Positions 2,471-60,159 of a stretch of DNA of 64,000 nt are shown here, one piece after another (within the stretch, counting starts at the first letter, position 1; every line of letters begins with the position of its first letter). The notes beneath the pieces were generated by a model, which saw only the letters and a list, made by a program, of their open reading frames with translations, ran no database searches and had not been told where the DNA came from. The stretch comes from Escherichia phage W115. The stretch is from the sequence record ON286974. The stretch is one strand, 5' to 3'. The position numbers were made by a program, and so were the translations under genes.

Positions 2471-2645
2471 TCTTCGTTTTGATCATAATTTAATCATACA
2501 TGTAAAAACTACACAAAAGGATATCGCTTCGCGAACTCCTACGGAGTATAACATTTGTGTTACATTATGTAGTGATTAATAATTAACCAAAGATACATTT
2601 TCTATGTTCTAAAGATCTTTCTTCGTTTTGATCATAATTTAATCA
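2471..2645. repeat. pair of 26-nt direct repeats (tcttcgttttgatcataatttaatca) about 149 bp apart in a 413-bp non-coding leader
   Basis: Identical copies at 2471-2496 and 2620-2645, read directly; intergenic between the DprA-like gene start and the upstream terminator. Confidence 0.7.
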
Positions 2646-2700
2646 AACAGTATTAATATTGTGCACATGTAAACTAAAATTATGTCAATAATAGATACAA

Positions 2701-2731
2701 AAAAGCCGCCCCGAATGACGGCTAATGTTAA
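2701..2731 (-). terminator. weak candidate intrinsic terminator
   Basis: gccg...cggc imperfect hairpin following an A-run on the plus strand, downstream of the 2732..3169 ORF. Confidence 0.3.
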
Positions 2732-3169
2732 TTATTTGTTGATAACGATCTGATTTCGGCGAATGGTAACATTACTCTTAGAGATGATCAGATCATCCGG
2801 CACTACGTTAGTTTTGTATGGTTGGAAGCGAACAAGCATCTGATTGCGTTTAGACCCTTCCTTAATCTTGATTTCCATCTGGATATTGTTGCCTACGTGA
2901 GCAACCGCAATTTCACCTTTATTCTCATAGACCCACTTGCTGGTAACGTCTCCAGCAAAAGCCTTAATAACTTGCAATGCTTCGTCGTATGCGGTAGAGC
3001 TGTGAACTTTCAGAAGGCCAGCCGTAGAAAGACGGGAGCAGGTGATCGCCGGAGATTGCCAAACATCAACATTAATTTGCTCAATCAGAGTAACACCGCC
3101 CTGATCAACTGCTTTGAATGCTTCGAACATTGCCTTTTTCATTGCTACGTGGTTTTTACGGAATTTCAT
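2732..3169 (-). CDS. hypothetical protein (145 aa)
   Basis: Track ORF; no recognisable motif. Confidence 0.5.
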   Translation of the reverse strand: MKFRKNHVAMKKAMFEAFKAVDQGGVTLIEQINVDVWQSPAITCSRLSTAGLLKVHSSTAYDEALQVIKAFAGDVTSKWVYENKGEIAVAHVGNNIQMEIKIKEGSKRNQMLVRFQPYKTNVVPDDLIISKSNVTIRRNQIVINK

Positions 3170-3215
3170 AATTAGTCACCTCTATTGATTAGTTATTCAG
3201 AATATTAATTACAAA

Positions 3216-3491
3216 TCAGGACATTGCCCGTTTGAATGCGTCCATTATAACAGTGTTATTTGGCATGTCAACACGTTTTTGAACTTTATTTTTAAATTTT
3301 TTGTTGATGTGGTGTTTACGATAAACAACCTTTTCACGGTTGGCGTAAGCCTCTCGTGCATCTTTTACCATCAACCATGCCTTAGCCGCATCTTGTCCGC
3401 TGATCCCGCCAATCTTTTTAGCAATATCAACAAAATTAAGACCGTGGTCTTCGCGTAGCATGTAAACCATTAACGCTGTTTTCTTGTCCAT
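3216..3491 (-). CDS. hypothetical protein, possible helix-turn-helix
   Basis: Track ORF 3216..3599 trimmed to internal ATG (MDKKTALMV...) which overlaps the stop of the upstream ORF in an ATGA-type junction. Confidence 0.4.
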   Translation of the reverse strand: MDKKTALMVYMLREDHGLNFVDIAKKIGGISGQDAAKAWLMVKDAREAYANREKVVYRKHHINKKFKNKVQKRVDMPNNTVIMDAFKRAMS

Positions 3492-3688
3492 CACTTCGCC
3501 CCATTGACGATTAACAGGATAGTGATCAGCACCGGAAACTGGATCATGATAGTGCCAATAAACCGGATAAACGCATTTTCTGACTTCCACACATGACATG
3601 CGACTAGCTGATAGACCATTGTTGAAACCAGAACTAGGATATAAACCGAAAGCGGTGTAACTTCGATTAGTCGGGAAATCTCATTCAT
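3491..3688 (-). CDS. small hydrophobic membrane protein (65 aa)
   Basis: Track ORF; GAGGTG RBS before ATG; hydrophobic stretch LSVYILVLVSTMVYQLV. Confidence 0.4.
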   Translation of the reverse strand: MNEISRLIEVTPLSVYILVLVSTMVYQLVACHVWKSENAFIRFIGTIMIQFPVLITILLIVNGAK

Positions 3689-3888: not shown

Positions 3889-5103
3889 TTAAGCAGGATG
3901 CGTTTCACGAATGCGTAGAACTCGCTCTAACGTCTCTCTGTCCAGCTTATGTAACTCTTTGGACTGATACATGAAACCATTGCGAGATTCCATGCAAGTG
4001 CAATCACTATATTTTTCTTCCGCTGCCGCGATTGTCTCCAGATCTTTGGCGTACTTGCTGGTTGAATAAACTTCTCGGTTACGCCACTCTAACCCAGCCT
4101 CATTGAATTTAACAATCTCGTCAAATACCCACCATCCAATGTAGATAAATGAAGTTTTGCGCCACGGGATCGGGTGTACGTAACGAAACATTTTAACAAC
4201 TTCCATTGAACATTTTCTACTTGTACTTGTTGCAACTTCTACTGTTTCATCTTCGATCTGTTGATATAGTTTAGCAACACACCAGAATTTGGCTGTGTCA
4301 TCGTAAGTAGCACTCTCTTTGAACAGATGACCGTCTGGAGTGATAGAAAATCCTTCCAGTGCTTCGCCAACCTCACTACCGATCAGAGTCGGTGACATTT
4401 GCCCTTCGCGCTGCAAATACCAGTTATATTTGATCGTCAAATTAGGCATACCGCTAGAATCGCCTACAATGTTCTCTGACACAACATAATTAAGTAAGAT
4501 CTCATTACCTAGTGCCACGGTCTTTGATTCCACTACATCCTGATCTACGTTCATTGTTGCCAGCATGATTTTAGTCGATGCGCTATCGGCTGAATCTTCC
4601 GACTCACCCCACACTTTTACAGTATACACGCCGTTTTTATCTGCTGTAAATTTTTGGATCGTAATATCCTGTGTTGTGTCTATAACGTCTTCGCCCTTAC
4701 TCCAACTATAATGTAGTTCATAGTTGTCTGCTGGAGTCTTCCCACCAGAAAATTTTACTGTTGCATGTAATTCTACGTCTGTTTGTGATGATACGTAGAA
4801 ATGCTGCGGTTCGGTGATATTTACGATTAATTCAGCTTCTTCCATGAGGAAAACTTCAGATTCTACTGATTCCATCGTATCGGTATCCTGTACCGTTACT
4901 TTATAGCTACCCGCATTTTCACTTGTTGCACCTACTACAGATAGCGTAGCTGTGCTATTTTCATGTGGTTGGTCGTCTTTTGTCCATGTATATGTCAAAT
5001 TGCTGGGTAATGGTTCGTCACCCGCTACAGTCGCCGTTAAGGTGAAACCATCTCCAGCAAGAAAACATCTTTTGTCAGATTTAATTGATACTGTGAAAGT
5101 CAT
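3889..5103 (-). CDS. hoc: Hoc, highly immunogenic outer capsid protein (Ig-like repeats)
   Basis: 404 aa with repeated Ig-like modules (TYTWTKDDQ..., YELHYSWSKGED..., GSYKVTVQD / GVYTVKVWG) and a C-terminal capsid-binding region; position between gene 24 and uvsW as in T4. Confidence 0.8.
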   Translation of the reverse strand: MTFTVSIKSDKRCFLAGDGFTLTATVAGDEPLPSNLTYTWTKDDQPHENSTATLSVVGATSENAGSYKVTVQDTDTMESVESEVFLMEEAELIVNITEPQHFYVSSQTDVELHATVKFSGGKTPADNYELHYSWSKGEDVIDTTQDITIQKFTADKNGVYTVKVWGESEDSADSASTKIMLATMNVDQDVVESKTVALGNEILLNYVVSENIVGDSSGMPNLTIKYNWYLQREGQMSPTLIGSEVGEALEGFSITPDGHLFKESATYDDTAKFWCVAKLYQQIEDETVEVATSTSRKCSMEVVKMFRYVHPIPWRKTSFIYIGWWVFDEIVKFNEAGLEWRNREVYSTSKYAKDLETIAAAEEKYSDCTCMESRNGFMYQSKELHKLDRETLERVLRIRETHPA

Positions 5104-5368
5104 ATAAAGCCACTCCCATAGAAAATCCGAATTTAATTAATTGAAATAGTTGATTGCCATCAACCAGATAACCATTGCGAGATTCCAATACATGAGTATT
5201 AGAATAGTGATGCAACGAGGCCGAAATAGTATCGATCTCGTCTGGGTATTTGTTCTGTTTGATGTAATACATTGATTTTGTTAGACATGTAGTATCCTCT
5301 TTTTAATTGCATAACGGAACTACAATTAAAATTATAACAAATATTTCACAACTTTTATCACCCAAAAA

Positions 5369-6094
5369 TTACTTGAGTGTGTGGAATTGGCTGTGTTTAG
5401 TCTCTCGCACCTTGACAGACCCATCGCGTTTGATATAATAGATCAGCGACTTGAGGGTGTCGTGTACATACGCGTGCGGGAAACGTTCTGGATACTTCTT
5501 CCAATCTGGAGTATTAACGATCCAGTCGAAAATCCACCACGGGCAGGAGTAGTAACCACGACCGCCACCGATCAAGCAAATGGTCGGACGGAAGCCAGTA
5601 AGATCGCAAAATGAATCAGTGTCATGTGCTGGGGAACGATGCTCTGCTTCGTTAGAGAAAATGTTGGCTACCGGAGATTCCACTTTAACTTCCGGTGCTT
5701 CTTCAACATCTGACTTAACTTCTTCGACCACTGGTTCAACTGCCGGAGATTCTTCTTTTGTTTCTTCAATGACGATCTCAGGTTCTTTCATTGCTTCAAC
5801 CAGAGACGGATCAACTTCGTCGAATACCACTTTATCATCTGCGGTGTCTGCTGCCAGAATAAGATCGTTAATACTGGTTCCTTCTGCCGGAGTTTCTTCT
5901 TCCATTTCGGAAGCCAGTTTAGTTAATTCTGTTTCTACGAACTCGATCATGTTCTCTAGCGAGAGCGTCTTTTTGACCTTTATATCAAATTGTTTTGCGT
6001 AGTCCGCTAATTCTGTTTTAGCGGCTTTCTGTGATTCTTTGTCGTCGGACGCCGCAATAGCGCGGAGTTCTTCGAAATATTCTTTATCAAACAT
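5369..6094 (-). CDS. inh: Inh-like protein (putative inhibitor of prohead protease), acidic N-terminus
   Basis: 241 aa; assigned mainly by synteny (between hoc and uvsW); no motif recognised. Confidence 0.4.
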   Translation of the reverse strand: MFDKEYFEELRAIAASDDKESQKAAKTELADYAKQFDIKVKKTLSLENMIEFVETELTKLASEMEEETPAEGTSINDLILAADTADDKVVFDEVDPSLVEAMKEPEIVIEETKEESPAVEPVVEEVKSDVEEAPEVKVESPVANIFSNEAEHRSPAHDTDSFCDLTGFRPTICLIGGGRGYYSCPWWIFDWIVNTPDWKKYPERFPHAYVHDTLKSLIYYIKRDGSVKVRETKHSQFHTLK

Positions 6095-9758: not shown

Positions 9759-10529
9759 ATGAATATTATCCGAATAAAACTACCGGAAGGTGTGCAGAGA
9801 TTTAAACCATTCACGGTAAAAGATTATAGAGATTTCCTTCTGGTGTCAACTGAAATTAAGATGAATCCAGAAGAAGAACAAACGATTCTTGATGAGCTAT
9901 TAGAAGAAATATATCCAGACGTAGATCCGGCATTTCGTGAATATATTTTCCTGAATGTCTTTACTAGTTCAATTGGTAAAACTAAGATACCGCTTTGTTT
10001 TACTTGCCCGACTTGCAACAAAGAAAGAAGAATGTTGCTTAACTTACAGGTTGAAGCACTAAAACCAATCGTTCTAGAGGCCGCAGGGCTTAAAATAACT
10101 TTCCGGTATGTTAAACCATCAACCGACTATGCAAAAACGTTTCTGGATGCGATAGAGCGTGTATCTGATGGTATTAATGACTATCTATGGACTGAATTGC
10201 CGGAAGAAGTTAGAGAACAGGTTATCGATTCAATCTCATTTTCTGAATTTGAAGAAGTTGTTAAGCAGATGCACACAATCAAGATCGAACAAAAGATATC
10301 TTGTTGTGAGAGTCATGACCTGAAATACATAGGTCTTCTTCCATTATTCAAATTGTTGTTGAATCCAGATGAGTTATTCATCTTTTATCGAATAAACCAT
10401 CTATTGGCAAAATCAAATTATTCTATCAGTGATCTTATGGACATGTTACCCGTCGAGAGAAACATTGCACTGACACTGGTCGAGAAAGACGTAAAAGAGG
10501 CAAACAATGCAAAGAACGGGGTTTCCTAA
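9759..10529 (+). CDS. 51: baseplate hub assembly protein gp51
   Basis: 256 aa; synteny 26-51-27; Cys pair CPTC typical of gp51. Confidence 0.75.
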   Translation: MNIIRIKLPEGVQRFKPFTVKDYRDFLLVSTEIKMNPEEEQTILDELLEEIYPDVDPAFREYIFLNVFTSSIGKTKIPLCFTCPTCNKERRMLLNLQVEALKPIVLEAAGLKITFRYVKPSTDYAKTFLDAIERVSDGINDYLWTELPEEVREQVIDSISFSEFEEVVKQMHTIKIEQKISCCESHDLKYIGLLPLFKLLLNPDELFIFYRINHLLAKSNYSISDLMDMLPVERNIALTLVEKDVKEANNAKNGVS

Positions 10530-19624: not shown

Positions 19625-19670
19625 TTCGGTATGGGTGTATTATGATATACACCATCTGTTATGTCAACAA
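19625..19670 (-). promoter_or_regulatory. PeSL early promoter cassette 1
   Basis: Minus strand TTGACA ... TAATAC with inverted repeat ggtgtat/atacacc around the -10, then CGAAACG leader and GGAGTATCAAA-ATG. Confidence 0.55.
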
Positions 19671-22050: not shown

Positions 22051-22061
22051 TTTTTATAAAA

Positions 22062-22229
22062 TTATTTGTTAATTTCTGGTGCGTTGCTCGGATAGTAACC
22101 TTCTTTAACACCCAGATATTTTGCAACCATCCCTACAATCTTCTGTGCTACTACAATGTCAAATTTCAGATAATCTTCGCCGTGGGTTTCAATGATATAT
22201 GCTTCACATGCTGCTTTAGTCTCGAACAT
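22062..22229 (-). CDS. small hypothetical protein (55 aa), duplicate of 25849..26016
   Basis: Manual ORF MFETKAACEAYIIETHGEDYLKFDIVVAQKI...; same length and near-identical sequence to the 25849..26016 ORF, by eye. Confidence 0.45.
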   Translation of the reverse strand: MFETKAACEAYIIETHGEDYLKFDIVVAQKIVGMVAKYLGVKEGYYPSNAPEINK

Positions 22230-22259
22230 TTTGATTCTCCTATTTCGTTTCGGTATGTG

Positions 22260-22295
22260 TGTAGTATAGGGGATCTCCCGATCCCCGTCAACAAC
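22260..22295 (-). promoter_or_regulatory. PeSL early promoter cassette 4
   Basis: GTTGAC - palindrome GGGGATCGGGAGATCCCC - TATACT; conserved leader. Confidence 0.6.
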
Positions 22296-22305
22296 TTTTT
22301 TAAAA

Positions 22306-22587
22306 TTATTCGTGATTAGTTTCGATGTTATACATTTTGCACCAGTTCAGCCAATCACCCAGATCCTGATAGTTGATGCTTTTATCTGCTGCCATCGTTT
22401 TTGTCTTGATACCCATATGTGCGTTATGAGTAAGCATTTTTACAGTGAACTCAATTTTATCGCCTTTAGCTTTAACATCAACCAGTTTGGTCCACTGGCT
22501 ACCAGCGCCGCGAATGTTCATACCAACGATGTTTCCGATGTATGCTTCTTTGTTTTTCAGGATTTCGGTTGCTTTGATGAATTTCAT
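22306..22587 (-). CDS. hypothetical protein (93 aa)
   Basis: Track ORF after PeSL 5. Confidence 0.55.
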   Translation of the reverse strand: MKFIKATEILKNKEAYIGNIVGMNIRGAGSQWTKLVDVKAKGDKIEFTVKMLTHNAHMGIKTKTMAADKSINYQDLGDWLNWCKMYNIETNHE

Positions 22588-22614
22588 TTTTGATTCTCCA
22601 GTTCGTTTCGGTAT

Positions 22615-22655
22615 GGGTGTATTATGCTATGTTCTTACTTTGGTGTCAACAACTT
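22615..22655 (-). promoter_or_regulatory. PeSL-type early promoter 5 (no strong stem)
   Basis: TTGACA ... TAATAC, CCGAAACGAA leader, GGAGAATCAAA before ATG. Confidence 0.5.
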
Positions 22656-22660
22656 TTTTT

Positions 22661-22930
22661 TTAGATATTTTCAGAAATAAATTTTAAAACTTGACGTAAA
22701 TGTTTCTCATCTTTGATAGTTGCCGGAAGTTCTTCTTTTACTTCCTGTGCAAGATAGATATTTCCGTTCCAAGTGAAAGATCCGTCTTCGTTTACTCGAT
22801 AGCTGAACATCCACTCGCAATCATTTTCGATTTCATATACACACAGAAGGGTGTAATCGTTAAAGCTATTGATTTCAATGTCGAAGCCGTGACGTTTTGC
22901 AAAGTTGGTAGTGGTTTTAGTCAGTGCCAT
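22661..22930 (-). CDS. hypothetical protein (89 aa)
   Basis: Track ORF after PeSL 6. Confidence 0.55.
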   Translation of the reverse strand: MALTKTTTNFAKRHGFDIEINSFNDYTLLCVYEIENDCEWMFSYRVNEDGSFTWNGNIYLAQEVKEELPATIKDEKHLRQVLKFISENI

Positions 22931-22964
22931 TGTTTGATTCTCCTAAGTGGTATCTCGTTTCGAT

Positions 22965-23005
22965 GTGTGTATTATGCTATGGGCGTGATCTGGTGTCAAC
23001 AACTT
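22965..23005 (-). promoter_or_regulatory. PeSL-type early promoter 6
   Basis: TTGACA ... TAATAC with CGAAACGAGATAC leader and GGAGAATCAAA. Confidence 0.5.
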
Positions 23006-23026
23006 TTTTAAATTTTTGGAAATAAA

Positions 23027-23057
23027 AAGCCGACACTAAGGTCGGCACATTTAAAAA
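23027..23057 (-). terminator. intrinsic terminator
   Basis: gccgacc-ttagt-gtcggc hairpin plus T-run on the minus strand. Confidence 0.55.
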
Positions 23058-23335
23058 TTCTTGCTATATATGCAAGCCTCATAATCTAGAGGATGACCGC
23101 CAATCCTACCAGGCTTAATATTCCAACCGCATCGATATTTGCTGACCATGCTAACCGTTTCGGTTCTTAGAGCATTTCTTTGCAAATCATACCCCCTAAA
23201 TTCTTGTCTATAAGGACAGTCCGCTTTGCAAGTTGGTGGTTCTACGTCATTTAGCGGGTCAGAAGCAGTTGGCTTTATTATCAATTCTTTGTTTGCAATA
23301 ATCATAAGCACATCCCATTGAAGACAATTTAACAT
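23051..23335 (-). CDS. hypothetical Cys-containing protein
   Basis: Track ORF 23051..23368 trimmed to first ATG; overlaps the upstream small ORF in another frame, so the start is uncertain. Confidence 0.35.
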   Translation of the reverse strand: MLNCLQWDVLMIIANKELIIKPTASDPLNDVEPPTCKADCPYRQEFRGYDLQRNALRTETVSMVSKYRCGWNIKPGRIGGHPLDYEACIYSKNF

Positions 23336-23438
23336 CTTCGCAATAAGTGTTGAATCCGTCAAATACAATCACTTCGTATTTGACTCCATCGGCGATAGCT
23401 TTTACTTTATACCATCCATGCTTGTATAAAATCTTCAT
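23259..23438 (-). CDS. small hypothetical protein (59 aa)
   Basis: Track ORF trimmed to ATG with GAGGGA RBS, directly after PeSL 7. Confidence 0.4.
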   Translation of the reverse strand: MKILYKHGWYKVKAIADGVKYEVIVFDGFNTYCEDVKLSSMGCAYDYCKQRIDNKANCF

Positions 23439-23464
23439 CTTTATTTCCCTCAATCTCGTTTCGA

Positions 23465-23505
23465 TGTGTGTATTATGCTATAGGCTAGACCAGGTTGTCA
23501 ACAAC
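23465..23505 (-). promoter_or_regulatory. PeSL-type early promoter 7
   Basis: TTGACA ... TAATAC, CGAAACGAG leader. Confidence 0.5.
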
Positions 23506-23519
23506 TTTTTTAAAATTTT

Positions 23520-23553
23520 ATGCAATAAAAAAGCCGACACTAAGGTCGGCTAA
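23520..23553 (-). terminator. intrinsic terminator (near-copy of the 23027 element)
   Basis: gccgacc-ttagt-gtcggc hairpin plus T-run. Confidence 0.55.
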
Positions 23554-23558
23554 TAAAA

Positions 23559-23867
23559 TCATTTAGACAAATAATCTTTCAGTGCAATCCGGTCGGCATG
23601 TTCCGGCGTTACGTCAATCGCAATCACTTTAACTCGTGCTTTCTTGCGACCTGGGTTTTCTCGTAACCAGTGCTCATGACCGTGAACATTTTTATACTGC
23701 GATGCTTCTTCGAAGGTACGGATCGGACCTGGGTAATCAGCGTAAAGGATCTCTAGATCTTCGGTGATGTAAAAATATACATCGTAATTGCTGTTCTCTA
23801 GTTTAAGCAGAGACTTTCGGAACATTGGGAGATTTTCGCGGGTAAATTCAAAGATATTATCTTTCAT
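23559..23867 (-). CDS. small protein family member A (HxHW ... V-I-A-I-D-V motif)
   Basis: 102 aa; ...VYFYITEDLEILYADY...HGHEHW...VKVIAIDV...; shares its C-terminal motif with five other ORFs in this region. Confidence 0.6.
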   Translation of the reverse strand: MKDNIFEFTRENLPMFRKSLLKLENSNYDVYFYITEDLEILYADYPGPIRTFEEASQYKNVHGHEHWLRENPGRKKARVKVIAIDVTPEHADRIALKDYLSK

Positions 23868-23885
23868 AGTATTATCCTCAATAGT

Positions 23886-23915
23886 TGGATGAAAAGGGGG
23901 GCTTAACGCCCCGTA
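23886..23915 (-). terminator. intrinsic terminator
   Basis: ggggggcttaacgcccc hairpin plus T-run on the minus strand. Confidence 0.5.
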
Positions 23916-23917
23916 TA

Positions 23918-24205
23918 TTAAAACAGTCCTTCCTGTACACCGTAGTAGAGTTCATCGCTGATAATTTCATTAATGCGACGGTGTGCATATTCCTGATTTG
24001 CGAAGTTATCAGCAAGTTCTACTTTAGTTTCTCCGTCATGAGTCCATTTAGTGATAACTTTACCATCTGCAAATTTGAAGTTGAACTCTTTAGCTACTGC
24101 ATCGCGTACCAGACGTGCGAACTTGTTATTACGGATTGCATTATCGGTTTCGTGTGCAGCGTGAGCGAATTTGTTAACTTTCAGAGTGATAGTAATGTAT
24201 GCCAT
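23918..24205 (-). CDS. hypothetical protein (95 aa), paralog of 27215..27526
   Basis: Shares ...RNNKFARLVRDAVAKEFNFK... with ...KNATLIREVRKALAKEFNTK... in the 27215 ORF. Confidence 0.55.
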   Translation of the reverse strand: MAYITITLKVNKFAHAAHETDNAIRNNKFARLVRDAVAKEFNFKFADGKVITKWTHDGETKVELADNFANQEYAHRRINEIISDELYYGVQEGLF

Positions 24206-24244
24206 AATTTGATTCTCCTAGTTAGAAAGTGTATCTCGTTTCGA

Positions 24245-24285
24245 TGGGTGTATTATGCTATACACCCTCTCGCGTGTCAACACTT
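24245..24285 (-). promoter_or_regulatory. PeSL early promoter cassette 8
   Basis: TTGACA ... inverted repeat GGGTGTAT/ATACACCC with -10 TAATAC in the loop; conserved leader. Confidence 0.55.
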
Positions 24286-24286
24286 T

Positions 24287-24565
24287 TTATAAAATAATTT
24301 TTTGATATTTTTCTATGATGTTTGTGTAATCCACATCAACCGCTATCACCGTTGCTTCGAATCCACCGTTTAGCCAATGGCTATGGTCATGATCGTGAAA
24401 GAAACCAAGACCAGTACGAAGACCTTCTTTATATTCGGCGCGTACATTTAGATCATCATCGATAAACAGATAAAACCATGAATTTTTACTAGGATTGATG
24501 ATACAACCTTTCAGATTAGGGAGAATATCACGACTAAGAATAAACTTATCACCTACTTTGAACAT
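24287..24565 (-). CDS. small protein family member B (HxHW motif)
   Basis: Trimmed to ATG with GAGGA RBS; ...WFYLFIDDDLNVRAEY...HDHSHW...TVIAVDV... Confidence 0.6.
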   Translation of the reverse strand: MFKVGDKFILSRDILPNLKGCIINPSKNSWFYLFIDDDLNVRAEYKEGLRTGLGFFHDHDHSHWLNGGFEATVIAVDVDYTNIIEKYQKIIL

Positions 24566-24569
24566 AATA

Positions 24570-24890
24570 TTAGTCCTCATTTATAAGGTCAAACCAATTG
24601 TTTTTCGCATAATGCTTAATGCGTGCTTGATCTGCTTCCGCTGGTGATAGATTCCATGCAACCACTACAACTTCTGACGCATCGTCATCCGTTTCTGATA
24701 CCCAATGATTGTGATTCATACAGTTATTTGCGATCGAGTGAGCAAATGATTTCATCACTGGAGACGTATAATCATAGTAACGGATTTTCAGATTTTCATC
24801 AACGTACAAATAGATCGTATAAGGTTTATATTCAGTAACCAGTAACAGACAGTTACGCAATTCTGGGAAAATCTTTTTAGTTAATTTCAT
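24570..24890 (-). CDS. small protein family member C (HxHW motif, divergent C-terminus)
   Basis: Trimmed to ATG (MKLTKKIF...) with GAGGA RBS; ...IYLYVDENLKIRYYDY...NHNHW...VVVVAWN... Confidence 0.55.
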   Translation of the reverse strand: MKLTKKIFPELRNCLLLVTEYKPYTIYLYVDENLKIRYYDYTSPVMKSFAHSIANNCMNHNHWVSETDDDASEVVVVAWNLSPAEADQARIKHYAKNNWFDLINED

Positions 24891-24891
24891 T

Positions 24892-25110
24892 TTATAATCC
24901 TCGGTCGCGGCTATAGTACACGGTACGCCATACAATTTCATGTTTCGTGTCGCTCCAGCACACGATCTCATTTACTCTTAAATCTTTGTTATCAACAAAA
25001 GATGAACATTGTGACGCTTCTTTCATCATTTTATCTGCTGTTTTCTCATCAAATACAGCACAGATTTCTTTATACACTCGATAATCTTTGAATTGACTCT
25101 GAATACCCAT
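24892..25110 (-). CDS. small hypothetical protein, paralog of 25070..25333
   Basis: MGIQSQFKDYRVYKEI...KMMKEASQCSSF aligns with MSKFKEYKAYQQI...KMMEDASKCPSF; start uncertain. Confidence 0.4.
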   Translation of the reverse strand: MGIQSQFKDYRVYKEICAVFDEKTADKMMKEASQCSSFVDNKDLRVNEIVCWSDTKHEIVWRTVYYSRDRGL

Positions 25111-25333
25111 AATTAACACCATTCCAACCAATTGTTTTTGAGAAAACGTTTATCCACTGTTGAGTGTAACATGTTTCTTTCCATGATACAATACGAGTAG
25201 AATAATGGTTTTTGTTTCCAGAAAAGGACGGGCATTTTGATGCATCTTCCATCATCTTTTCGGCGAACTCTGGTGCGTATACTCGCAGGATCTGTTGATA
25301 TGCTTTGTATTCTTTAAATTTGCTCATAATCAT
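25070..25333 (-). CDS. small hypothetical protein, paralog of 24892..25110
   Basis: Track ORF; tandem duplicate of the downstream ORF. Confidence 0.45.
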   Translation of the reverse strand: MIMSKFKEYKAYQQILRVYAPEFAEKMMEDASKCPSFSGNKNHYSTRIVSWKETCYTQQWINVFSKTIGWNGVNYGYSESIQRLSSV

Positions 25334-25592
25334 TCACTACCTTATCAGCTTCTTTTGTTGTTTTTACATCAACTGCGATAACTCGTAAAGGTTCGTCATG
25401 GTTCCACCAGTGGTCATGAATATCAGCTTGTGATTTATCACCAAAGGAATCACGAATATCATTTTTACATTTATAGCTAATGTGACCTTCATAGTCAACA
25501 TAAAGGTAATTATCGAAAATCGGCGTTTTTAAGATCATACCGAAAAATCTTTCTTTGTGTGTCTTATCCAGCGTTGCAGTAATTCGCATCAT
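25314..25592 (-). CDS. small protein family member D (HxHW motif)
   Basis: 92 aa; ...NYLYVDYEGHISY...HDHWW...LRVIAVDV...; AAGAGGA RBS. Confidence 0.6.
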   Translation of the reverse strand: MMRITATLDKTHKERFFGMILKTPIFDNYLYVDYEGHISYKCKNDIRDSFGDKSQADIHDHWWNHDEPLRVIAVDVKTTKEADKVVNDYEQI

Positions 25593-25604
25593 AATATATT
25601 CCTC

Positions 25605-25784
25605 TTAGAAAGGGATGGTCATTTCTTGAGCTTGTACATTCTCGTTAGGATTAAACTTCATCCAGCCGATATTGTCTACCAGCATATGCACATTTTTATC
25701 ATATCCTACGTGAGTAGTCAACACTAAATGTGCTTTATCTTCAATGATGAGTTCCATGTACTTCTGAACTTCGATAGCTTTCAT
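25605..25784 (-). CDS. small hypothetical protein (59 aa)
   Basis: Manual ORF MKAIEVQKYMELIIEDK... directly after PeSL 9. Confidence 0.35.
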   Translation of the reverse strand: MKAIEVQKYMELIIEDKAHLVLTTHVGYDKNVHMLVDNIGWMKFNPNENVQAQEMTIPF

Positions 25785-25807
25785 TTTGATTCTCCGTTTG
25801 TTGTCTT

Positions 25808-25848
25808 GATGGGAGTATCTTACTACTCCCTTTAATCATTGTCAACTA
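25808..25848 (-). promoter_or_regulatory. PeSL early promoter cassette 9
   Basis: TTGACA ... inverted repeat GGGAGTA-GTAAGA-TACTCCC with -10-like TAAGAT in the loop; GGAGAATCAAA before ATG. Confidence 0.55.
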
Positions 25849-26016
25849 TTATTTGTTAATTTCTGGTGCGTTGCTCGGATAGTAACCTTCTTTAACACCA
25901 AGATATTTTGCAACCATTCCGGTGATCTTCTGTGCTACTACGATATCGAATTTCAGGTAGTCTTCACCGTGGTTTGCTACAATGTACGCTTCGCATTCTG
26001 CTTTAGTCTGGAACAT
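25849..26016 (-). CDS. small hypothetical protein (55 aa), duplicate of 22062..22229
   Basis: Track ORF trimmed: the N-terminal MLTGDHRSPI... is read-through of the PeSL; real start MFQTKAECEAYIVANHGEDYLKFDIVVAQKI... Confidence 0.5.
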   Translation of the reverse strand: MFQTKAECEAYIVANHGEDYLKFDIVVAQKITGMVAKYLGVKEGYYPSNAPEINK

Positions 26017-26047
26017 TTTTGATTCTCCTATATCTCGTTGGTATGTG

Positions 26048-26082
26048 TGCATTATAGGGGATCGGTGATCCCCTGTCAACAA
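26048..26082 (-). promoter_or_regulatory. PeSL early promoter cassette 10
   Basis: TTGACA - palindrome GGGGATCACCGATCCCC - TATAAT; conserved leader. Confidence 0.6.
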
Positions 26083-26084
26083 CT

Positions 26085-26378
26085 TTATAATGCTTTATAT
26101 GCGTATTTCATAAATTTGTCTGCCACTTCATTGGCATGTTCAGATTCTACGCCTGATTCGAGAACAATAGCTAGGTCGGTTTCGTCATTCCCGCCGTACC
26201 AATGATTTGATGTTCGATTTTTTTCAATTGGAAATTGGTCACTTTTATCTGTGCGACAAAATACATCTAAATGCTCGTCGATGTAAAAGATCCAATCTTC
26301 ATAAAGAATAACGGTATTAGCAAGATTTTTATTGCCTTCAACGAAAGGTTCGGCTACAAACAAATTAGTATGTTCCAT
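26085..26378 (-). CDS. small protein family member E (degenerate N-HW motif)
   Basis: Trimmed to ATG (MEHTNLFV...) with GAGGAAAA RBS; ...WIFYIDEHLDVF...SNHWYGG...LAIVLESGV... Confidence 0.55.
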   Translation of the reverse strand: MEHTNLFVAEPFVEGNKNLANTVILYEDWIFYIDEHLDVFCRTDKSDQFPIEKNRTSNHWYGGNDETDLAIVLESGVESEHANEVADKFMKYAYKAL

Positions 26379-26394
26379 AGTATTTTCCTCAAAA

Positions 26395-26586
26395 TTATAC
26401 AGCTTCGTAAACTTCCCAATGTCCAACACCAGCACGCTTAACGAAAAGGTTTTCTTTGATGTTATTCATAAACGTCTGGATGGATTTAATGCGGTTTGAA
26501 GGTTTCCATTCTTCGTTTGCATTGCGTCGATACATCATAACATTACCAGTTCGCTTATATTCAGCAACCATTTTAAGACCACACAT
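26395..26586 (-). CDS. hypothetical protein (63 aa)
   Basis: Track ORF; GAGGATAA RBS. Confidence 0.5.
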   Translation of the reverse strand: MCGLKMVAEYKRTGNVMMYRRNANEEWKPSNRIKSIQTFMNNIKENLFVKRAGVGHWEVYEAV

Positions 26587-26643
26587 AATATTATCCTCAA
26601 TTTGTGGGAGAGTATTACCCCTCCCAATGATTGTTATGTTATA

Positions 26644-26946
26644 TCACACAAAATGGCGTGTCAATGCTTCTTTTGCGGTTCCGCTAAGATTCTCGATCTC
26701 TCCTGGCATAACATCAACCGCAAGAACTTCTACAACATCCTCTGATCCTAACCAGTGAGTATGACCTTTGTAGAACTTGATATCCCATTTATCGCTATCG
26801 CTAGCCCACCACACATCACCGTCGATAAAGTTGATGTAAAGCACACTACGCCACATTGAATTAATTACTTTCAATACTGCGCCTTTCATCTCTTCCACGG
26901 TGTGGTCTTCCATTTTGAAGACCTCGCCTACCTTAACTTTTGCCAT
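26644..26946 (-). CDS. small protein family member F (HxHW motif)
   Basis: 100 aa; ...VLYINFIDGDVWW...HTHW...VEVLAVDV...; AGAGAGGTGA RBS. Confidence 0.6.
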   Translation of the reverse strand: MAKVKVGEVFKMEDHTVEEMKGAVLKVINSMWRSVLYINFIDGDVWWASDSDKWDIKFYKGHTHWLGSEDVVEVLAVDVMPGEIENLSGTAKEALTRHFV

Positions 26947-26963
26947 TTAGTCACCTCTCTTTA

Positions 26964-27143
26964 TTACATAACAATCACGCCAGCCGTTGAAAGTTGATGT
27001 TTCAACTGAGCATTTTCTGCTACCGTCAAATCAATGATTTCTTGTGACGCTGCAATCATATAGCCATTGGTGATATTGTTTTGCATCAGTTCAATGGTTT
27101 CTTCGTTGTAGCGGATTTTAGCGATGATTTCGTTGAAGTTCAT
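26964..27143 (-). CDS. small hypothetical protein (59 aa)
   Basis: Track ORF trimmed to remove promoter read-through (MLTGDHRSPI...); real start MNFNEIIAK... Confidence 0.45.
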   Translation of the reverse strand: MNFNEIIAKIRYNEETIELMQNNITNGYMIAASQEIIDLTVAENAQLKHQLSTAGVIVM

Positions 27144-27174
27144 AATTGATTCTCCTAGTTCGTTTCGGTATGTG

Positions 27175-27210
27175 TGTAGTATAGGGGATCGGTGATCCCC
27201 TGTCAACAAC
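27175..27210 (-). promoter_or_regulatory. PeSL early promoter cassette 11
   Basis: TTGACA - palindrome GGGGATCACCGATCCCC - TATACT; leader nearly identical to cassette 4. Confidence 0.6.
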
Positions 27211-27214
27211 TTTT

Positions 27215-27526
27215 TTAAAGTTTTTCCATGATAACGGTCATAATTATATCTTCTGCGCGAGCGGTCAGATTATCAGCGTCAGCATGTGGGCGGTTGGTTG
27301 TTACAGAGATAACACCGTTGCGCACTGGTTTGATGTTGATATCAAGATGATCCGCGAAACGTTCGCCAGTTACAGAATGAATTTTGGTGTTAAATTCTTT
27401 TGCCAGTGCCTTGCGAACTTCACGAATCAGGGTAGCGTTTTTCAGTTGGTTCTCCGCGCTCATGGTCTTCTGGGTGTTCATGGTTCCGTCGAAGTCAATC
27501 ATTGGCAGCGTTACGATGTATTTCAT
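27215..27526 (-). CDS. hypothetical protein (103 aa), paralog of 23918..24205
   Basis: Trimmed to ATG (MKYIVTLPM...); shared ...VRKALAKEFN... motif. Confidence 0.5.
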   Translation of the reverse strand: MKYIVTLPMIDFDGTMNTQKTMSAENQLKNATLIREVRKALAKEFNTKIHSVTGERFADHLDINIKPVRNGVISVTTNRPHADADNLTARAEDIIMTVIMEKL

Positions 27527-27569
27527 TTTTGATTCTCCGTTTAAGAAAGTGTGTTTCGTTTTGATGTGT

Positions 27570-27602
27570 GTAGTATAGGGGATCACCGATCCCCTGTCAA
27601 CA
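27570..27602 (-). promoter_or_regulatory. PeSL early promoter cassette 12
   Basis: TTGACA - palindrome GGGGATCGGTGATCCCC - TATACT. Confidence 0.6.
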
Positions 27603-27612
27603 ACTTTTTGAA

Positions 27613-28089
27613 TTATTTTTCTTGATGCTCGCGATCGTACTTTTCGAAATAAAATTCTACTGGCTGGTCGTGGATTGACAGCAAGCCAAAGCGTTTAGCC
27701 GCTCGCAATCCCATATTGCGCTGAATGTACTTCTGGAAGTTCTCGCGTATACACTTACGCCAGGATTCTAAGCCCATGCAGCTTTTATAAAGATTGCATT
27801 GCACACATGCCGGATTCATGTTATCAAGTATATCATGCTCCGGTTTATGCATTCCTACAACCTTATACTTCCACGATCCATCATCATTACGGGCAATTCG
27901 TCCATTTTCATCATAGACAACCTTTGAGCGTCGTAATACTGGTTTGATATGGTCTGCGTGCCAGCGATCCCCTAGTTCCTCGCCACAATAGGCACAACGT
28001 CCACCGTATTTCATTTTCAGGATCTGACGTTGCTCTTTCTTTGACAATTTTTTAGGTTTAGGGGCTTTCGCCCCTTCATTATCACACAT
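27613..28089 (-). CDS. HNH endonuclease
   Basis: 158 aa; CAYCG ... HADHIKP ... N ... CVQCN (HNH zinc-finger nuclease motif); start overlaps the ligase stop. Confidence 0.7.
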   Translation of the reverse strand: MCDNEGAKAPKPKKLSKKEQRQILKMKYGGRCAYCGEELGDRWHADHIKPVLRRSKVVYDENGRIARNDDGSWKYKVVGMHKPEHDILDNMNPACVQCNLYKSCMGLESWRKCIRENFQKYIQRNMGLRAAKRFGLLSIHDQPVEFYFEKYDREHQEK

Positions 28090-37935: not shown

Positions 37936-38103
37936 TCACTTTTTAACACAAAAGAACTTAGTATTTCTGTTTATTTCGCTATCCTGCTGCAATTCCTGCA
38001 CAGCTTCAAAACAATTTTGATATGATGAAAACTCTACGCTGGTAACAGTTCCTTTATTATATACGCCTACGCTAACGGAAAGCAATAACCATAATGTAGC
38101 CAT
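37936..38103 (-). CDS. small protein with hydrophobic N-terminus (55 aa), tandem paralog
   Basis: Manual ORF MATLWLLLSVSVGVYNKG...; start overlaps the stop of the next ORF (TAATG). Confidence 0.3.
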   Translation of the reverse strand: MATLWLLLSVSVGVYNKGTVTSVEFSSYQNCFEAVQELQQDSEINRNTKFFCVKK

Positions 38104-38276
38104 TAGTTCACCTTTTGTTTTTCAACGCAATATAGATTCATAAAGCGTTTATTGTCTTCGCGGATAATCTCGCGAACTTTAACGCAATCCTGCTTTGTTG
38201 CAAACTCAATGCTTGACATATTTCCGTAATTATACATTGAATTGCTGATTGCAATCAATAACCATACAGTAGCCAT
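38103..38276 (-). CDS. small protein with hydrophobic N-terminus (57 aa), tandem paralog
   Basis: Manual ORF MATVWLLIAISNSMYNYG...; paralogous to the 37936..38103 ORF. Confidence 0.3.
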   Translation of the reverse strand: MATVWLLIAISNSMYNYGNMSSIEFATKQDCVKVREIIREDNKRFMNLYCVEKQKVN

Positions 38277-59143: not shown

Positions 59144-59392
59144 TTATTGGCGCATAGAAGCCCCTGAATCACATTTTGACGCTGTATGATGAAAACATGT
59201 AGCGTACCAGTCATCGGCTTGTTTGTCTTCGTCAGAAAACGCGTAATTTCGTTGTATACCGTTTTCTACTTTGACCAGTGCGATAGCTGTTTCTGGAAGA
59301 TCAATCAATCGGACAAAATCGCCATCTTCCCATTCTACACGAGCAATATCATAGCCCATCTCAAAGTATACAATCGCTTGTTCTAATTTCAT
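59144..59392 (-). CDS. hypothetical protein (82 aa)
   Basis: Track ORF. Confidence 0.45.
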   Translation of the reverse strand: MKLEQAIVYFEMGYDIARVEWEDGDFVRLIDLPETAIALVKVENGIQRNYAFSDEDKQADDWYATCFHHTASKCDSGASMRQ

Positions 59393-59712
59393 TCTGGAAA
59401 CTTCCCGTAAACATTCTCTGCCAACTTACGTGCATCTTTTACAATATCTTTCATGTAATGGCTATAATTTTTAGCTAAATCAATGATGCAATCAACAAAG
59501 AAGTAATAGCGTCGCAGTGCTACCAGCTCAACATCTTCAAGATGACCATTTTCCCCAATCGCTGAAATATGTTTAAATTCCTTTCGGATCGCGTCCATCG
59601 CTACATTAACTTCTTTTATAATATCTTTCGTATTATATGCACCTCGACTAATCAAAATTTTGGTTAGGTCTTCTGCTTTTTCGTGAAAGTTGTCAATTTC
59701 AAACTCGATCAT
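59389..59712 (-). CDS. hypothetical protein, paralog of 59827..60159
   Basis: Trimmed to ATG with GAGAGGTGA RBS; C-terminus ...KDARKLAENVYGKFPE against ...DEARIMTENIFGKF. Confidence 0.5.
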   Translation of the reverse strand: MIEFEIDNFHEKAEDLTKILISRGAYNTKDIIKEVNVAMDAIRKEFKHISAIGENGHLEDVELVALRRYYFFVDCIIDLAKNYSHYMKDIVKDARKLAENVYGKFPE

Positions 59713-59826
59713 AATCACCTCTCATAATTTCACGCTGTTGTGTCAACATTTTTTCGTGGTTTGCTAATTCTATACATTGTAATAGCATAACCAGTGCAAT
59801 TTTCAATGATTCATCATCTTTCATAA

Positions 59827-60159
59827 TCAAAATTTACCGAAAATATTCTCTGTCATAATTCTTGCTTCGTCGATTATTTTCGTCATGTTCATGGTGTAGT
59901 TATGATCATTTAGTGCCTTAATGACAACGAGCAAGGAATCTAAAAACACTCGATACCGGGTATATTCTACGCTATTTGTGAATACCGATGTTTTCTCTAC
60001 TTTATCGATCAGATAGCCTAAAGCCGATAGCGCCTCGTTTACTTCCCTTGTTACTTTATCGGCGCTAAACAACACCGGATAAAGACGCGGTGTGATTAAC
60101 CGCGCTGCCTCTTTCAATTCGGTCGCTTTCCATGATTCATATTTGTCATAGTTAAACAT
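59827..60159 (-). CDS. hypothetical protein, paralog of 59389..59712
   Basis: 110 aa; AAGGAGA RBS. Confidence 0.5.
   Translation of the reverse strand: MFNYDKYESWKATELKEAARLITPRLYPVLFSADKVTREVNEALSALGYLIDKVEKTSVFTNSVEYTRYRVFLDSLLVVIKALNDHNYTMNMTKIIDEARIMTENIFGKF

Follow-up and report, generated by a model that had tools for sequence, protein, structure and literature searches.

Positions 22,062 to 27,526 of the 64,000-nucleotide (nt) stretch of Escherichia phage W115 analyzed here (sequence record ON286974; 'the window' throughout) carry a run of small genes, several of which resemble one another: a dispersed pair (a1 and a2), a tandem pair (b1 and b2) and a second dispersed pair (c1 and c2), with two more tandem pairs (d1/d2 and e1/e2) elsewhere in the window. 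The account that very probably holds is one of old duplications that predate the sampled genus, of gene conversion between a1 and a2, and of cassette turnover mediated by repeated promoter elements, the 'promoter-early stem-loops' (PeSLs), in the hyperplastic region HPR3. An initial annotation had picked out the look-alikes as recent duplications. That they are paralogs is borne out for all five pairs by alignments, PHROGs and profiles: similarity is above chance, and identities exceed background for every pair (BLASTP, Smith-Waterman shuffles and hhalign). That they are recent does not stand, given genus-wide synteny, saturated synonymous sites in the first 33 codons of pair a, and identities of 36-40% or less in pairs b to e.

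The 8 kilobases (kb) around these genes match 63 phage records, nearly all from Escherichia or Shigella Krischvirus (best identity 97%); by sequence, the window belongs to Krischvirus, as an RB49-like T4-type coliphage (a myovirus). Gene by gene, the stretch follows RB49 from open reading frame (ORF) 189 to ORF213: a DNA methyltransferase gene, about 21 small minus-strand hypothetical genes, an HNH endonuclease gene and the gene for DNA ligase gp30. On this gene order the span of pairs a to c corresponds to HPR3, RB49 ORF190-ORF211, the same locus at which PeSLs were described by Arbiol 2010 (PMC2839356); inverse polymerase chain reaction (PCR) in that work revealed PeSL × PeSL recombination that excises ORF192 and ORF210 as mini-circles. 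The window is without ORF192 and ORF211, like phi1, but has ORF195/196, like RB49. The array consists of short genes on a single strand, many with a PeSL in front, and all ten coordinate sets flagged as pair members are intact ORFs on the minus strand. Families a, b, c and a further one named for its H.HW motif (2+2+2+6 genes) account for 12 of the approximately 21 genes in the span; over half of the HPR3 genes are then members of four paralog families. None of the proteins has a Pfam match above cut-offs, and all PHROGs involved carry the annotation 'unknown function'. Paralogy was assessed by all-versus-all BLASTP of the window ORFs, by Smith-Waterman alignment against 2000 shuffles, and over 300 protein pairs in the region.

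How old the duplications are is most readily seen in pair a:

22062..22229, minus strand: a1, ortholog of RB49 ORF191, 55 amino acids (aa), phrog_8009
25849..26016, minus strand: a2, ortholog of RB49 ORF205, 55 aa, phrog_8009

The two share 49 of 55 residues (89%) and 146 of 168 nt (87%), with a BLASTP E value of 9e-35 and a Smith-Waterman z-score of 52; each matches phrog_8009 over its full length by hidden Markov model (HMM; E values across the phrog_8009, phrog_8471 and phrog_7474 pairs run from 2e-33 to 2e-43). Figures of this kind favor the perspective in which the duplications are recent, each copied with its promoter, and record ongoing gene birth in this phage. That perspective is very improbable, as in every pair the two members hold the same positions throughout the genus. 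Two copies of a are found in 51 of 58 Krischvirus-like records (tblastn) and both lie at the same positions in 12 of 14 relatives examined; comparison of gene order with relatives thus finds a second copy that is syntenic throughout rather than lineage-specific. The 5' two-thirds of the gene is equally telling. Over the first 96 nt, a1 and a2 are 78-81% identical in every phage, and orthologs at either locus are 96-100% identical; in codons 1-33 the proportion of differing synonymous sites (pS; Nei-Gojobori) between a1 and a2 is 0.64-0.69, which is saturated (0.69 in the window), with a nonsynonymous counterpart (pN) of 0.08-0.10, and pS between orthologs is 0-0.05. As the paralogs are saturated at synonymous sites and the orthologs nearly unchanged, a1 and a2 diverged long before the sampled genus arose. 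The ratio of nonsynonymous to synonymous substitution (dN/dS) for the pair is about 0.05-0.08, and both copies have been under purifying selection since the duplication. High identity of dispersed phage paralogs, then, need not imply recent duplication: here it accompanies an old split, purifying selection and patchy conversion.

Some phages keep a single copy, of a1 type alone in Cognac and FL04 and of a2 type alone in MIZ4/5, Brandy, JK32 and UPWr_E1; since phages of both kinds exist, the two copies may be functionally redundant. Homologs 70-72% identical occur in unrelated siphoviruses of about 45 kb (swi2, SeSz-2, D10, Pu29 and Bas81). In Escherichia phage swi2 the homolog (1501-1656 of the retrieved segment) opens a short rightward unit adjoining the large terminase gene, and has no PeSL. 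A word-indexed similarity search with the a protein gave four clusters, without functional names; its AlphaFold model is poor (predicted local distance difference test, pLDDT, 61.5) and unsuited to fold searches.

The differences between a1 and a2 are unevenly spread. In the window, 21 of the 22 fall within the first 99 nt and one in the last 69 (Fisher p 1e-4); in RB49, SFHK24, phi1 and GEC-3S this 3' segment has five synonymous a1/a2 differences (pS 0.37). The window's a1 shows synonymous differences from the a1 of RB49, phi1 and GEC-3S only at five sites, in codons 34-55, where it has the base of the window's own a2 at four and the base of the GEC-3S-type a2 reference at all five. The near-identity of the 3' third in the window is best attributed to gene conversion, and part of the near-identity of the pair as a whole would be owed to the resulting tract, whose putative limits are:

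22089..22122, minus strand: minimal conversion tract in a1 (gene positions 108-141; five diagnostic sites, all in the a2 state)
about 22058-22130, minus strand: maximal conversion tract in a1 (3' limit at the stop codon, where homology stops)

Twenty-five diagnostic sites tabulated over 15 phages give the wider evidence. The a1 genes of phi1, SFHK24, GEC-3S and FL20 are purely of a1 type; runs of a2 state interrupt a1 at sites 108-141 in the window and kaaroe, 108-120 in SAP, 99-141 in MIZ6 and, at the 5' end, 7-24 in PTE-Eco09; conversely, the middle of a2 (sites 51-75) has a run of a1 state in Brandy and PTE-Eco09. These 15 phages show a minimum of five distinct short tracts, with transfer in both directions, and the tract in the 3' third is specific to the lineage of the window, kaaroe, SAP and MIZ6. 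From such mosaics, a1 and a2 appear to exchange short patches by ectopic gene conversion.

A different perspective would place the cause of the 3' likeness in the nucleotides themselves: an RNA element, or a signal that overlaps the PeSL following it, could hold the DNA constant with no need for conversion. The 3' segment does adjoin the downstream PeSL, and the protein encoded by codons 34-55 is invariant in all a copies. This explanation is nonetheless barely credible: the a1 orthologs of RB49, phi1, SFHK24 and GEC-3S differ from a2 at the five synonymous sites just described, and with a pS of 0.37 the DNA there is therefore free to vary; in other phages tracts lie elsewhere in the gene, with transfer also in the reverse direction; and the PeSLs downstream of a1 and of a2 are of different subclasses.

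The remaining pairs are more diverged still:

24892..25110, minus strand: b1, ortholog of RB49 ORF201, 72 aa, phrog_8471, the downstream tandem member
25070..25333, minus strand: b2, ortholog of RB49 ORF202, 87 aa, phrog_8471
23918..24205, minus strand: c1, ortholog of RB49 ORF198, 95 aa, phrog_7474
27215..27526, minus strand: c2, ortholog of RB49 ORF210, 103 aa, phrog_7474
59389..59712, minus strand: d1, 107 aa, phrog_9457
59827..60159, minus strand: d2, 110 aa, phrog_9457
37936..38103, minus strand: e1, 55 aa, phrog_5579, with a hydrophobic N-terminus
38103..38276, minus strand: e2, 57 aa, phrog_5579, with a 1-nt overlap between its stop and the e1 start

Pair b is 40% identical over 63 aa (BLASTP E 3e-14, z 24), its two genes overlap by 41 nt, and both match phrog_8471 full-length by HMM. 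The tandem pairs d and e, put forward in the initial annotation as similar cases, prove to be so: d1 and d2 are 37% identical over 43 aa (E 2e-5, z 10.7; both in phrog_9457), and e1 and e2 are 36% identical over 55 aa (E 2e-12, z 20; both in phrog_5579). In the presence/absence matrix, most relatives have pair b as well as c1 and c2; of the records that match the tandem regions, 52 of 54 cover that of e, and 43 of 58 that of d, to at least 80%. At 36-40% protein identity for pairs b, d and e, and with pair c detectable by profile comparison alone, these four are older than the a1/a2 split, which again argues against recent copying.

Pair c is the most remote. The VR.A.AKEFN.K core by which it had been noticed is indeed shared, at 9 of 12 residues, and both proteins match phrog_7474 over their full length. 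All-versus-all BLASTP of the window ORFs does not detect the pair at E<0.01; tblastn with c1 does not reach the c2 locus at E<=1, and a word-indexed similarity search with c2 returns its own cluster alone. Smith-Waterman alignment gives z 6.7, with none of 2000 shuffles scoring as well; in a second run, over the 300 pairs of the region, c1/c2 (z 6.5) stands directly behind the ten strongest pairs of the a, b and H families, and the best pair outside the four families reaches z 3.9. The bridge comes from Gaprivervirus, where homologs 42-46% identical to c1 (SP18 gp146, VR25 and VR26) are intermediate in character: their N-terminus is c2-like (MK[FY]I..L..[VI]DFD.T.N...AEN) and their C-terminus c1-like (SDELYYGVQE). 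With hhalign, a profile of c1 and these homologs meets the c2 orthologs at 96% probability (E 4.5e-9, 78 columns). The sequence comparisons confirm c1 and c2 as remote paralogs, bridged by SP18 gp146. In Shigella phage SP18, gp146 (2462-2767 of the retrieved segment) lies between the transfer RNA cluster and e.6. The c2 gene is the 'ORFan210' mini-circle gene of Arbiol 2010 (PMC2839356). The 300 pairs were also searched by gene order (c then H, H then a) for a larger segmental duplication, and yielded no further remote pairs.

Whether the promoters were copied along with the genes is a separate matter. By pattern scan, PeSLs precede ORF190, a1, ORF193, ORF194, ORF196, c1, ORF204, a2, ORF209 and c2. 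At its 5' end each has an AT-rich tract that includes the stop of the preceding gene, and at its 3' end a Shine-Dalgarno sequence and the start codon of the ORFan. Between positions 19000 and 28500 there are ten sigma-70 sites matching at 11-12 of 12 consensus positions, all on the gene strand; eight are inside the span of pairs a to c and two upstream, at 19667 and 19915. The elements that bear on the pairs are:

22230..22303, minus strand: a1 PeSL, with TTGACG, a 17-nt spacer holding the GGGGATCGGGAGATCCCC hairpin, TATACT, leader, GGAG and ATG
26017..26091, minus strand: a2 PeSL, 12/12 sigma-70 consensus, GGGGATCACCGATCCCC hairpin within the spacer
24206..24292, minus strand: c1 PeSL, long leader with ACACTTTCTAAC
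27527..27612, minus strand: c2 PeSL, long leader with ACACTTTCTTAA
21979..22059, minus strand: PeSL downstream of a1, predicted to drive ORF190
25785..25848, minus strand: PeSL downstream of a2, predicted to drive ORF204; of the other subclass, in which the hairpin overlaps the -10 box
27144..27218, minus strand: ORF209 PeSL

The sigma-70 score is 12/12 for a2, 11/12 for both c1 and c2, and 10/12 for a1. The hairpins, GGGGATC(N3-4)GATCCCC, lie in the spacer for a1, a2 and c2, and that of c1 extends over the -10 box; each of the four is present in the predicted minimum-free-energy fold. Arbiol 2010 (PMC2839356) reported promoter and terminator activity in vivo for PeSL193/192, PeSL206/205 and PeSL211/210 of RB49/phi1, and PeSL206/205 is the ortholog of the a2 PeSL.

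The a proteins had been called near-identical, and their PeSLs likewise; the first description holds at 89%, the second less well. The a1 and a2 PeSLs are of the same GGGGATC-NNN-GATCCCC subclass and 84% identical, and homology between the two loci runs from the AT-rich/-35 part of the PeSL through to the stop codon, as it should had gene and promoter been copied together. Each, though, is closer to the PeSLs of unrelated genes: that of a1 is 91% identical to the ORF209 PeSL and 89% to the ORF186 PeSL, that of a2 87% and 85%, against a mean of 68 ± 7% over 253 PeSL pairs. The a1 hairpin also changes between phages, as between JSE and the window. PeSLs make up a homogenized mosaic repeat family, and therefore cannot show that a promoter was copied with its gene. 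Pair c offers more: its two PeSLs are 76% identical, about one standard deviation above the family mean, and they alone in the window share the long leader ACACTTTCTWAM..GGAGAATCAAA, found with a search pattern derived from those two sequences. This private motif speaks for the recent-copying perspective as far as the promoter is concerned, and hints that c1 and c2 were duplicated with theirs. The tandem pairs lack promoters of their own: scans of b, d and e find no PeSL between the members or directly upstream. That the genes were duplicated together with their promoters is unproven.

The initial annotation was correct that the region is in active turnover. The demonstration lies, however, in conversion and in the presence or absence of cassettes bounded by PeSLs, not in the paralog pairs. 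Brandy is without a1, and its junction consists of the 5' part of the a1 PeSL and the 3' part of the ORF190 PeSL. Brandy and SFHK24 are both without c2; in each, the junction is a chimera of the c2 and ORF209 PeSLs, with a crossover point that differs between the two phages, and the SFHK24 junction has a hybrid hairpin loop. A crossover in the hairpin loop was reported for the RB49 ORF210 mini-circles (Arbiol 2010, PMC2839356). PTE-Eco09 is without ORF206-209, the junction (3480-3552 of the retrieved segment) joining the ORF209 PeSL to the a2 PeSL; c2 therefore lies directly upstream of a2. On both sides of the ORF195/196 module the window has a direct repeat of about 110 nt, in which an intrinsic-terminator hairpin, GCCGACCTTAGTGTCGGC, with a T-run is followed by a PeSL:

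22952..23059, minus strand: downstream copy of the repeat (terminator hairpin and PeSL)
23453..23563, minus strand: upstream copy of the repeat

In phi1 and kaaroe there is a single chimeric copy of the repeat, and ORF195/196 are absent. Between ORF193 and a1, RB49 has ORF192 and JSE has JSE_00199, which are different genes. In all there are four or five independent cassette gains or losses with junctions at PeSLs, and PeSLs serve as the crossover sites for them. The chimeric junctions amount to natural, population-level confirmation of the PeSL recombination model, which came from one phage pair and inverse PCR.

Whole alleles are replaced as well. The b1 gene occurs among relatives in two haplotypes about 62% identical, the divergent class being that of SFHK24, MIZ4, ECD7, GEC-3S and Brandy; for ORF203 the identity is 58% in GEC-3S, and for ORF206 about 70% in MIZ4, GEC-3S and Brandy. 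These divergent alleles occur among phages otherwise about 95-99% identical, a distribution that points to replacement by recombination with more distant relatives.

Such replacement gives some color to a further perspective, in which the dispersed look-alikes (a1/a2 and c1/c2) would be no duplicates at all: they would be related alleles acquired separately, as PeSL cassettes or packaged mini-circles. Mini-circles have been proposed as transfer vectors (Arbiol 2010, PMC2839356); a homologs at 70-72% exist in the unrelated siphoviruses swi2, SeSz-2, D10 and Bas81; and the nearest c1 relative outside the genus, SP18 gp146, combines a c2-like N-terminus with a c1-like C-terminus. Separate acquisition is unlikely all the same. 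The two a copies are closer to each other, at 89%, than to any homolog found outside the genus (at most 83%), and no donor lineage with an a1-type or an a2-type allele alone was found outside Krischvirus.

Old duplication within the genus' ancestry, followed by conversion and turnover, thus remains the preferred account, and a sequence of events can be proposed for it. HPR3 would have grown largely by duplication and divergence, before the sampled genus. Unequal exchange is the most likely origin of the tandem pairs b, d and e, whose members share an operon promoter; for pairs a and c and most members of the H family, the most likely route would be that a PeSL-bounded cassette was copied to a second PeSL, whether through unequal PeSL × PeSL recombination or as an excised mini-circle that re-inserted. 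After duplication, the copies have been kept under purifying selection, those of pair a still exchanging patches by ectopic conversion. Present turnover consists of PeSL × PeSL deletion or insertion of whole cassettes, and of replacement by divergent alleles.

Several points weigh against this account. The sequence does not reveal the mechanism of the original dispersed duplications. The homogenized PeSLs give no specific signal that a1 and a2 were duplicated along with them. With homologs in unrelated siphoviruses, the a copies could be separately acquired alleles. The conversion argument stands on a gene of 168 nt in 15 genomes, and some single-site 'tracts' could be ordinary substitutions. 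Finally, early transcription of these genes is presumed from promoter consensus and from the published reporter assays on RB49/phi1 PeSLs.

The largest family in the array had not been flagged. Six more genes in the span share the pattern Y.Y[IV]D.D[LV].[IV]...H.HW...V.V[IL]AVDV..E[AE], in which H.HW is invariant and V.V[IL]AVDV marks a strand:

23559..23867, minus strand: H member 1 (ORF197), 102 aa, phrog_9345
24287..24565, minus strand: H member 2 (ORF199), 92 aa
24570..24890, minus strand: H member 3 (ORF200), 106 aa, phrog_9345
25314..25592, minus strand: H member 4 (ORF203), 92 aa
26644..26946, minus strand: H member 5 (ORF208), 100 aa
26085..26378, minus strand: H member 6 (ORF206), 97 aa, the weakest

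A profile of the five clear members finds ORF206 at E 5.5e-5, the next window ORF scoring 0.18. PHROGs splits the six proteins over five families (9345, 17255, 15972, 16486 and 15965); pairwise z-scores, the profile search and a shared predicted fold argue that they form one. The family is narrow: a full HMMER scan finds 19 clusters among 1.84 billion representatives, and the named matches are all from Krischvirus-type phages. Its AlphaFold model is confident (pLDDT 87.6) and has no convincing match in the PDB. Copy number varies in the genus, as JSE (5112-5378 of the retrieved segment) and FL20 (4994-5260) have an extra 88-aa member between ORF208 and ORF209, and in JSE (2588-3261) two ORF200-like genes take the place of the window's ORF199 and ORF200. 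This previously unrecognized six-member family is a defined target for functional work on early ORFans.

How much of this is new? The PeSL cassettes and mini-circles of HPR3 in RB49/phi1 were described by Arbiol 2010 (PMC2839356) and Comeau 2014 (PMC4122927). The present observations concern the same genus, the same locus (ORF190-211) and the same PeSL × PeSL outcome, with the same architecture (AT-rich tract, TTGACA-N17-TAnnnT, G/C hairpin, Shine-Dalgarno and ATG); in the natural deletions of a1, c2, ORF206-209 and ORF195/196 the junctions fall after the -10 box or in the hairpin loop, as in the sequenced mini-circles. Thus the locus, the PeSLs and their role in cassette shuffling were already known, and, as the members of each flagged pair match a single PHROG over their full length, the paralogy was implicit in a public resource. 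The two papers deal with what is gained, lost or replaced between phage pairs; nowhere in their biological text do 'duplication', 'paralog' or 'gene conversion' appear, and literature searches found no earlier description of these paralog families. What is added here is the families themselves, notably that of six members, the dating of the duplications, the a1/a2 conversion tracts, and chimeric PeSLs at natural junctions in newer genomes. These additions leave the established view of genome plasticity in T4-type phages as it was.

Two likenesses to other systems are instructive. Integron cassette arrays, as an analogy only, also consist of short, mostly orphan cassettes in one orientation, with paralogous cassettes within an array, circular excised intermediates and re-insertion at a conserved site. 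HPR3 differs in having no integrase, attC or attI; exchange appears to use general homologous recombination over the approximately 70-100 bp of PeSL homology (the phage recombination system needs <50 bp of homology, as cited in Arbiol 2010, PMC2839356); and each cassette has its own promoter, unlike the single Pc promoter of integrons. The exchange between a1 and a2 resembles concerted evolution by ectopic conversion in its short two-way mosaic tracts, between copies about 3.8 kb apart, on an older diverged background; unlike concerted evolution elsewhere, the tracts are very short (tens of nt), the setting is a lytic phage and homogenization is incomplete.

A bolder perspective would bring these strands together. 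HPR3 would be an integrase-free array of promoter-carrying cassettes, which PeSL recombination copies, deletes and swaps; its families would be diversifying early proteins of host takeover or anti-defense, with conversion shuffling the variants. This is rather unlikely; if true, the H.HW family, with its variable copy number (six to seven members) and a predicted fold without a solved match, would be foremost among the diversifying families.

Some smaller differences among relatives concern the same genes. Near the end of b2 (25070-25140), the window and RB49 have a 5-nt insertion relative to ECD7 and GEC-3S, which shifts the frame and adds about 18 C-terminal codons across the b1 start; b1 has a 9-nt insertion directly after its start codon, and JSE has a single b gene. 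The c2 of RB49 (ORF210; 9774-10103 of the retrieved segment) is 330 nt long, against 312 nt elsewhere, because of an in-frame 18-nt tandem duplication (ERFADH ERFADH) that is absent from the window's c2 and from six other phages checked. JSE gene 00199, of the same length as c2 and adjoining a1, was considered as a truly recent copy of it and ruled out: the two are unrelated. The gap between d2 and d1 (59713-59826, minus strand, 114 nt) is no promoter region and holds a short overlapping putative ORF (MKDDESLKIALVMLLQCIELANHEKMLTQQREIMRGDYDRV). The hydrophobic N-termini of e1 and e2 read MATLWLLLSVSVGVY and MATVWLLIAISNSMY, and this pair adjoins nrdB in relatives. At the other end of the array, RB49 and JSE, unlike the window, have ORF211, an extra membrane-protein gene, between the HNH gene and c2; the HNH endonuclease gene itself (27613-28089, minus strand) overlaps the end of the DNA ligase gp30 gene and forms the upstream edge of the cassette array.

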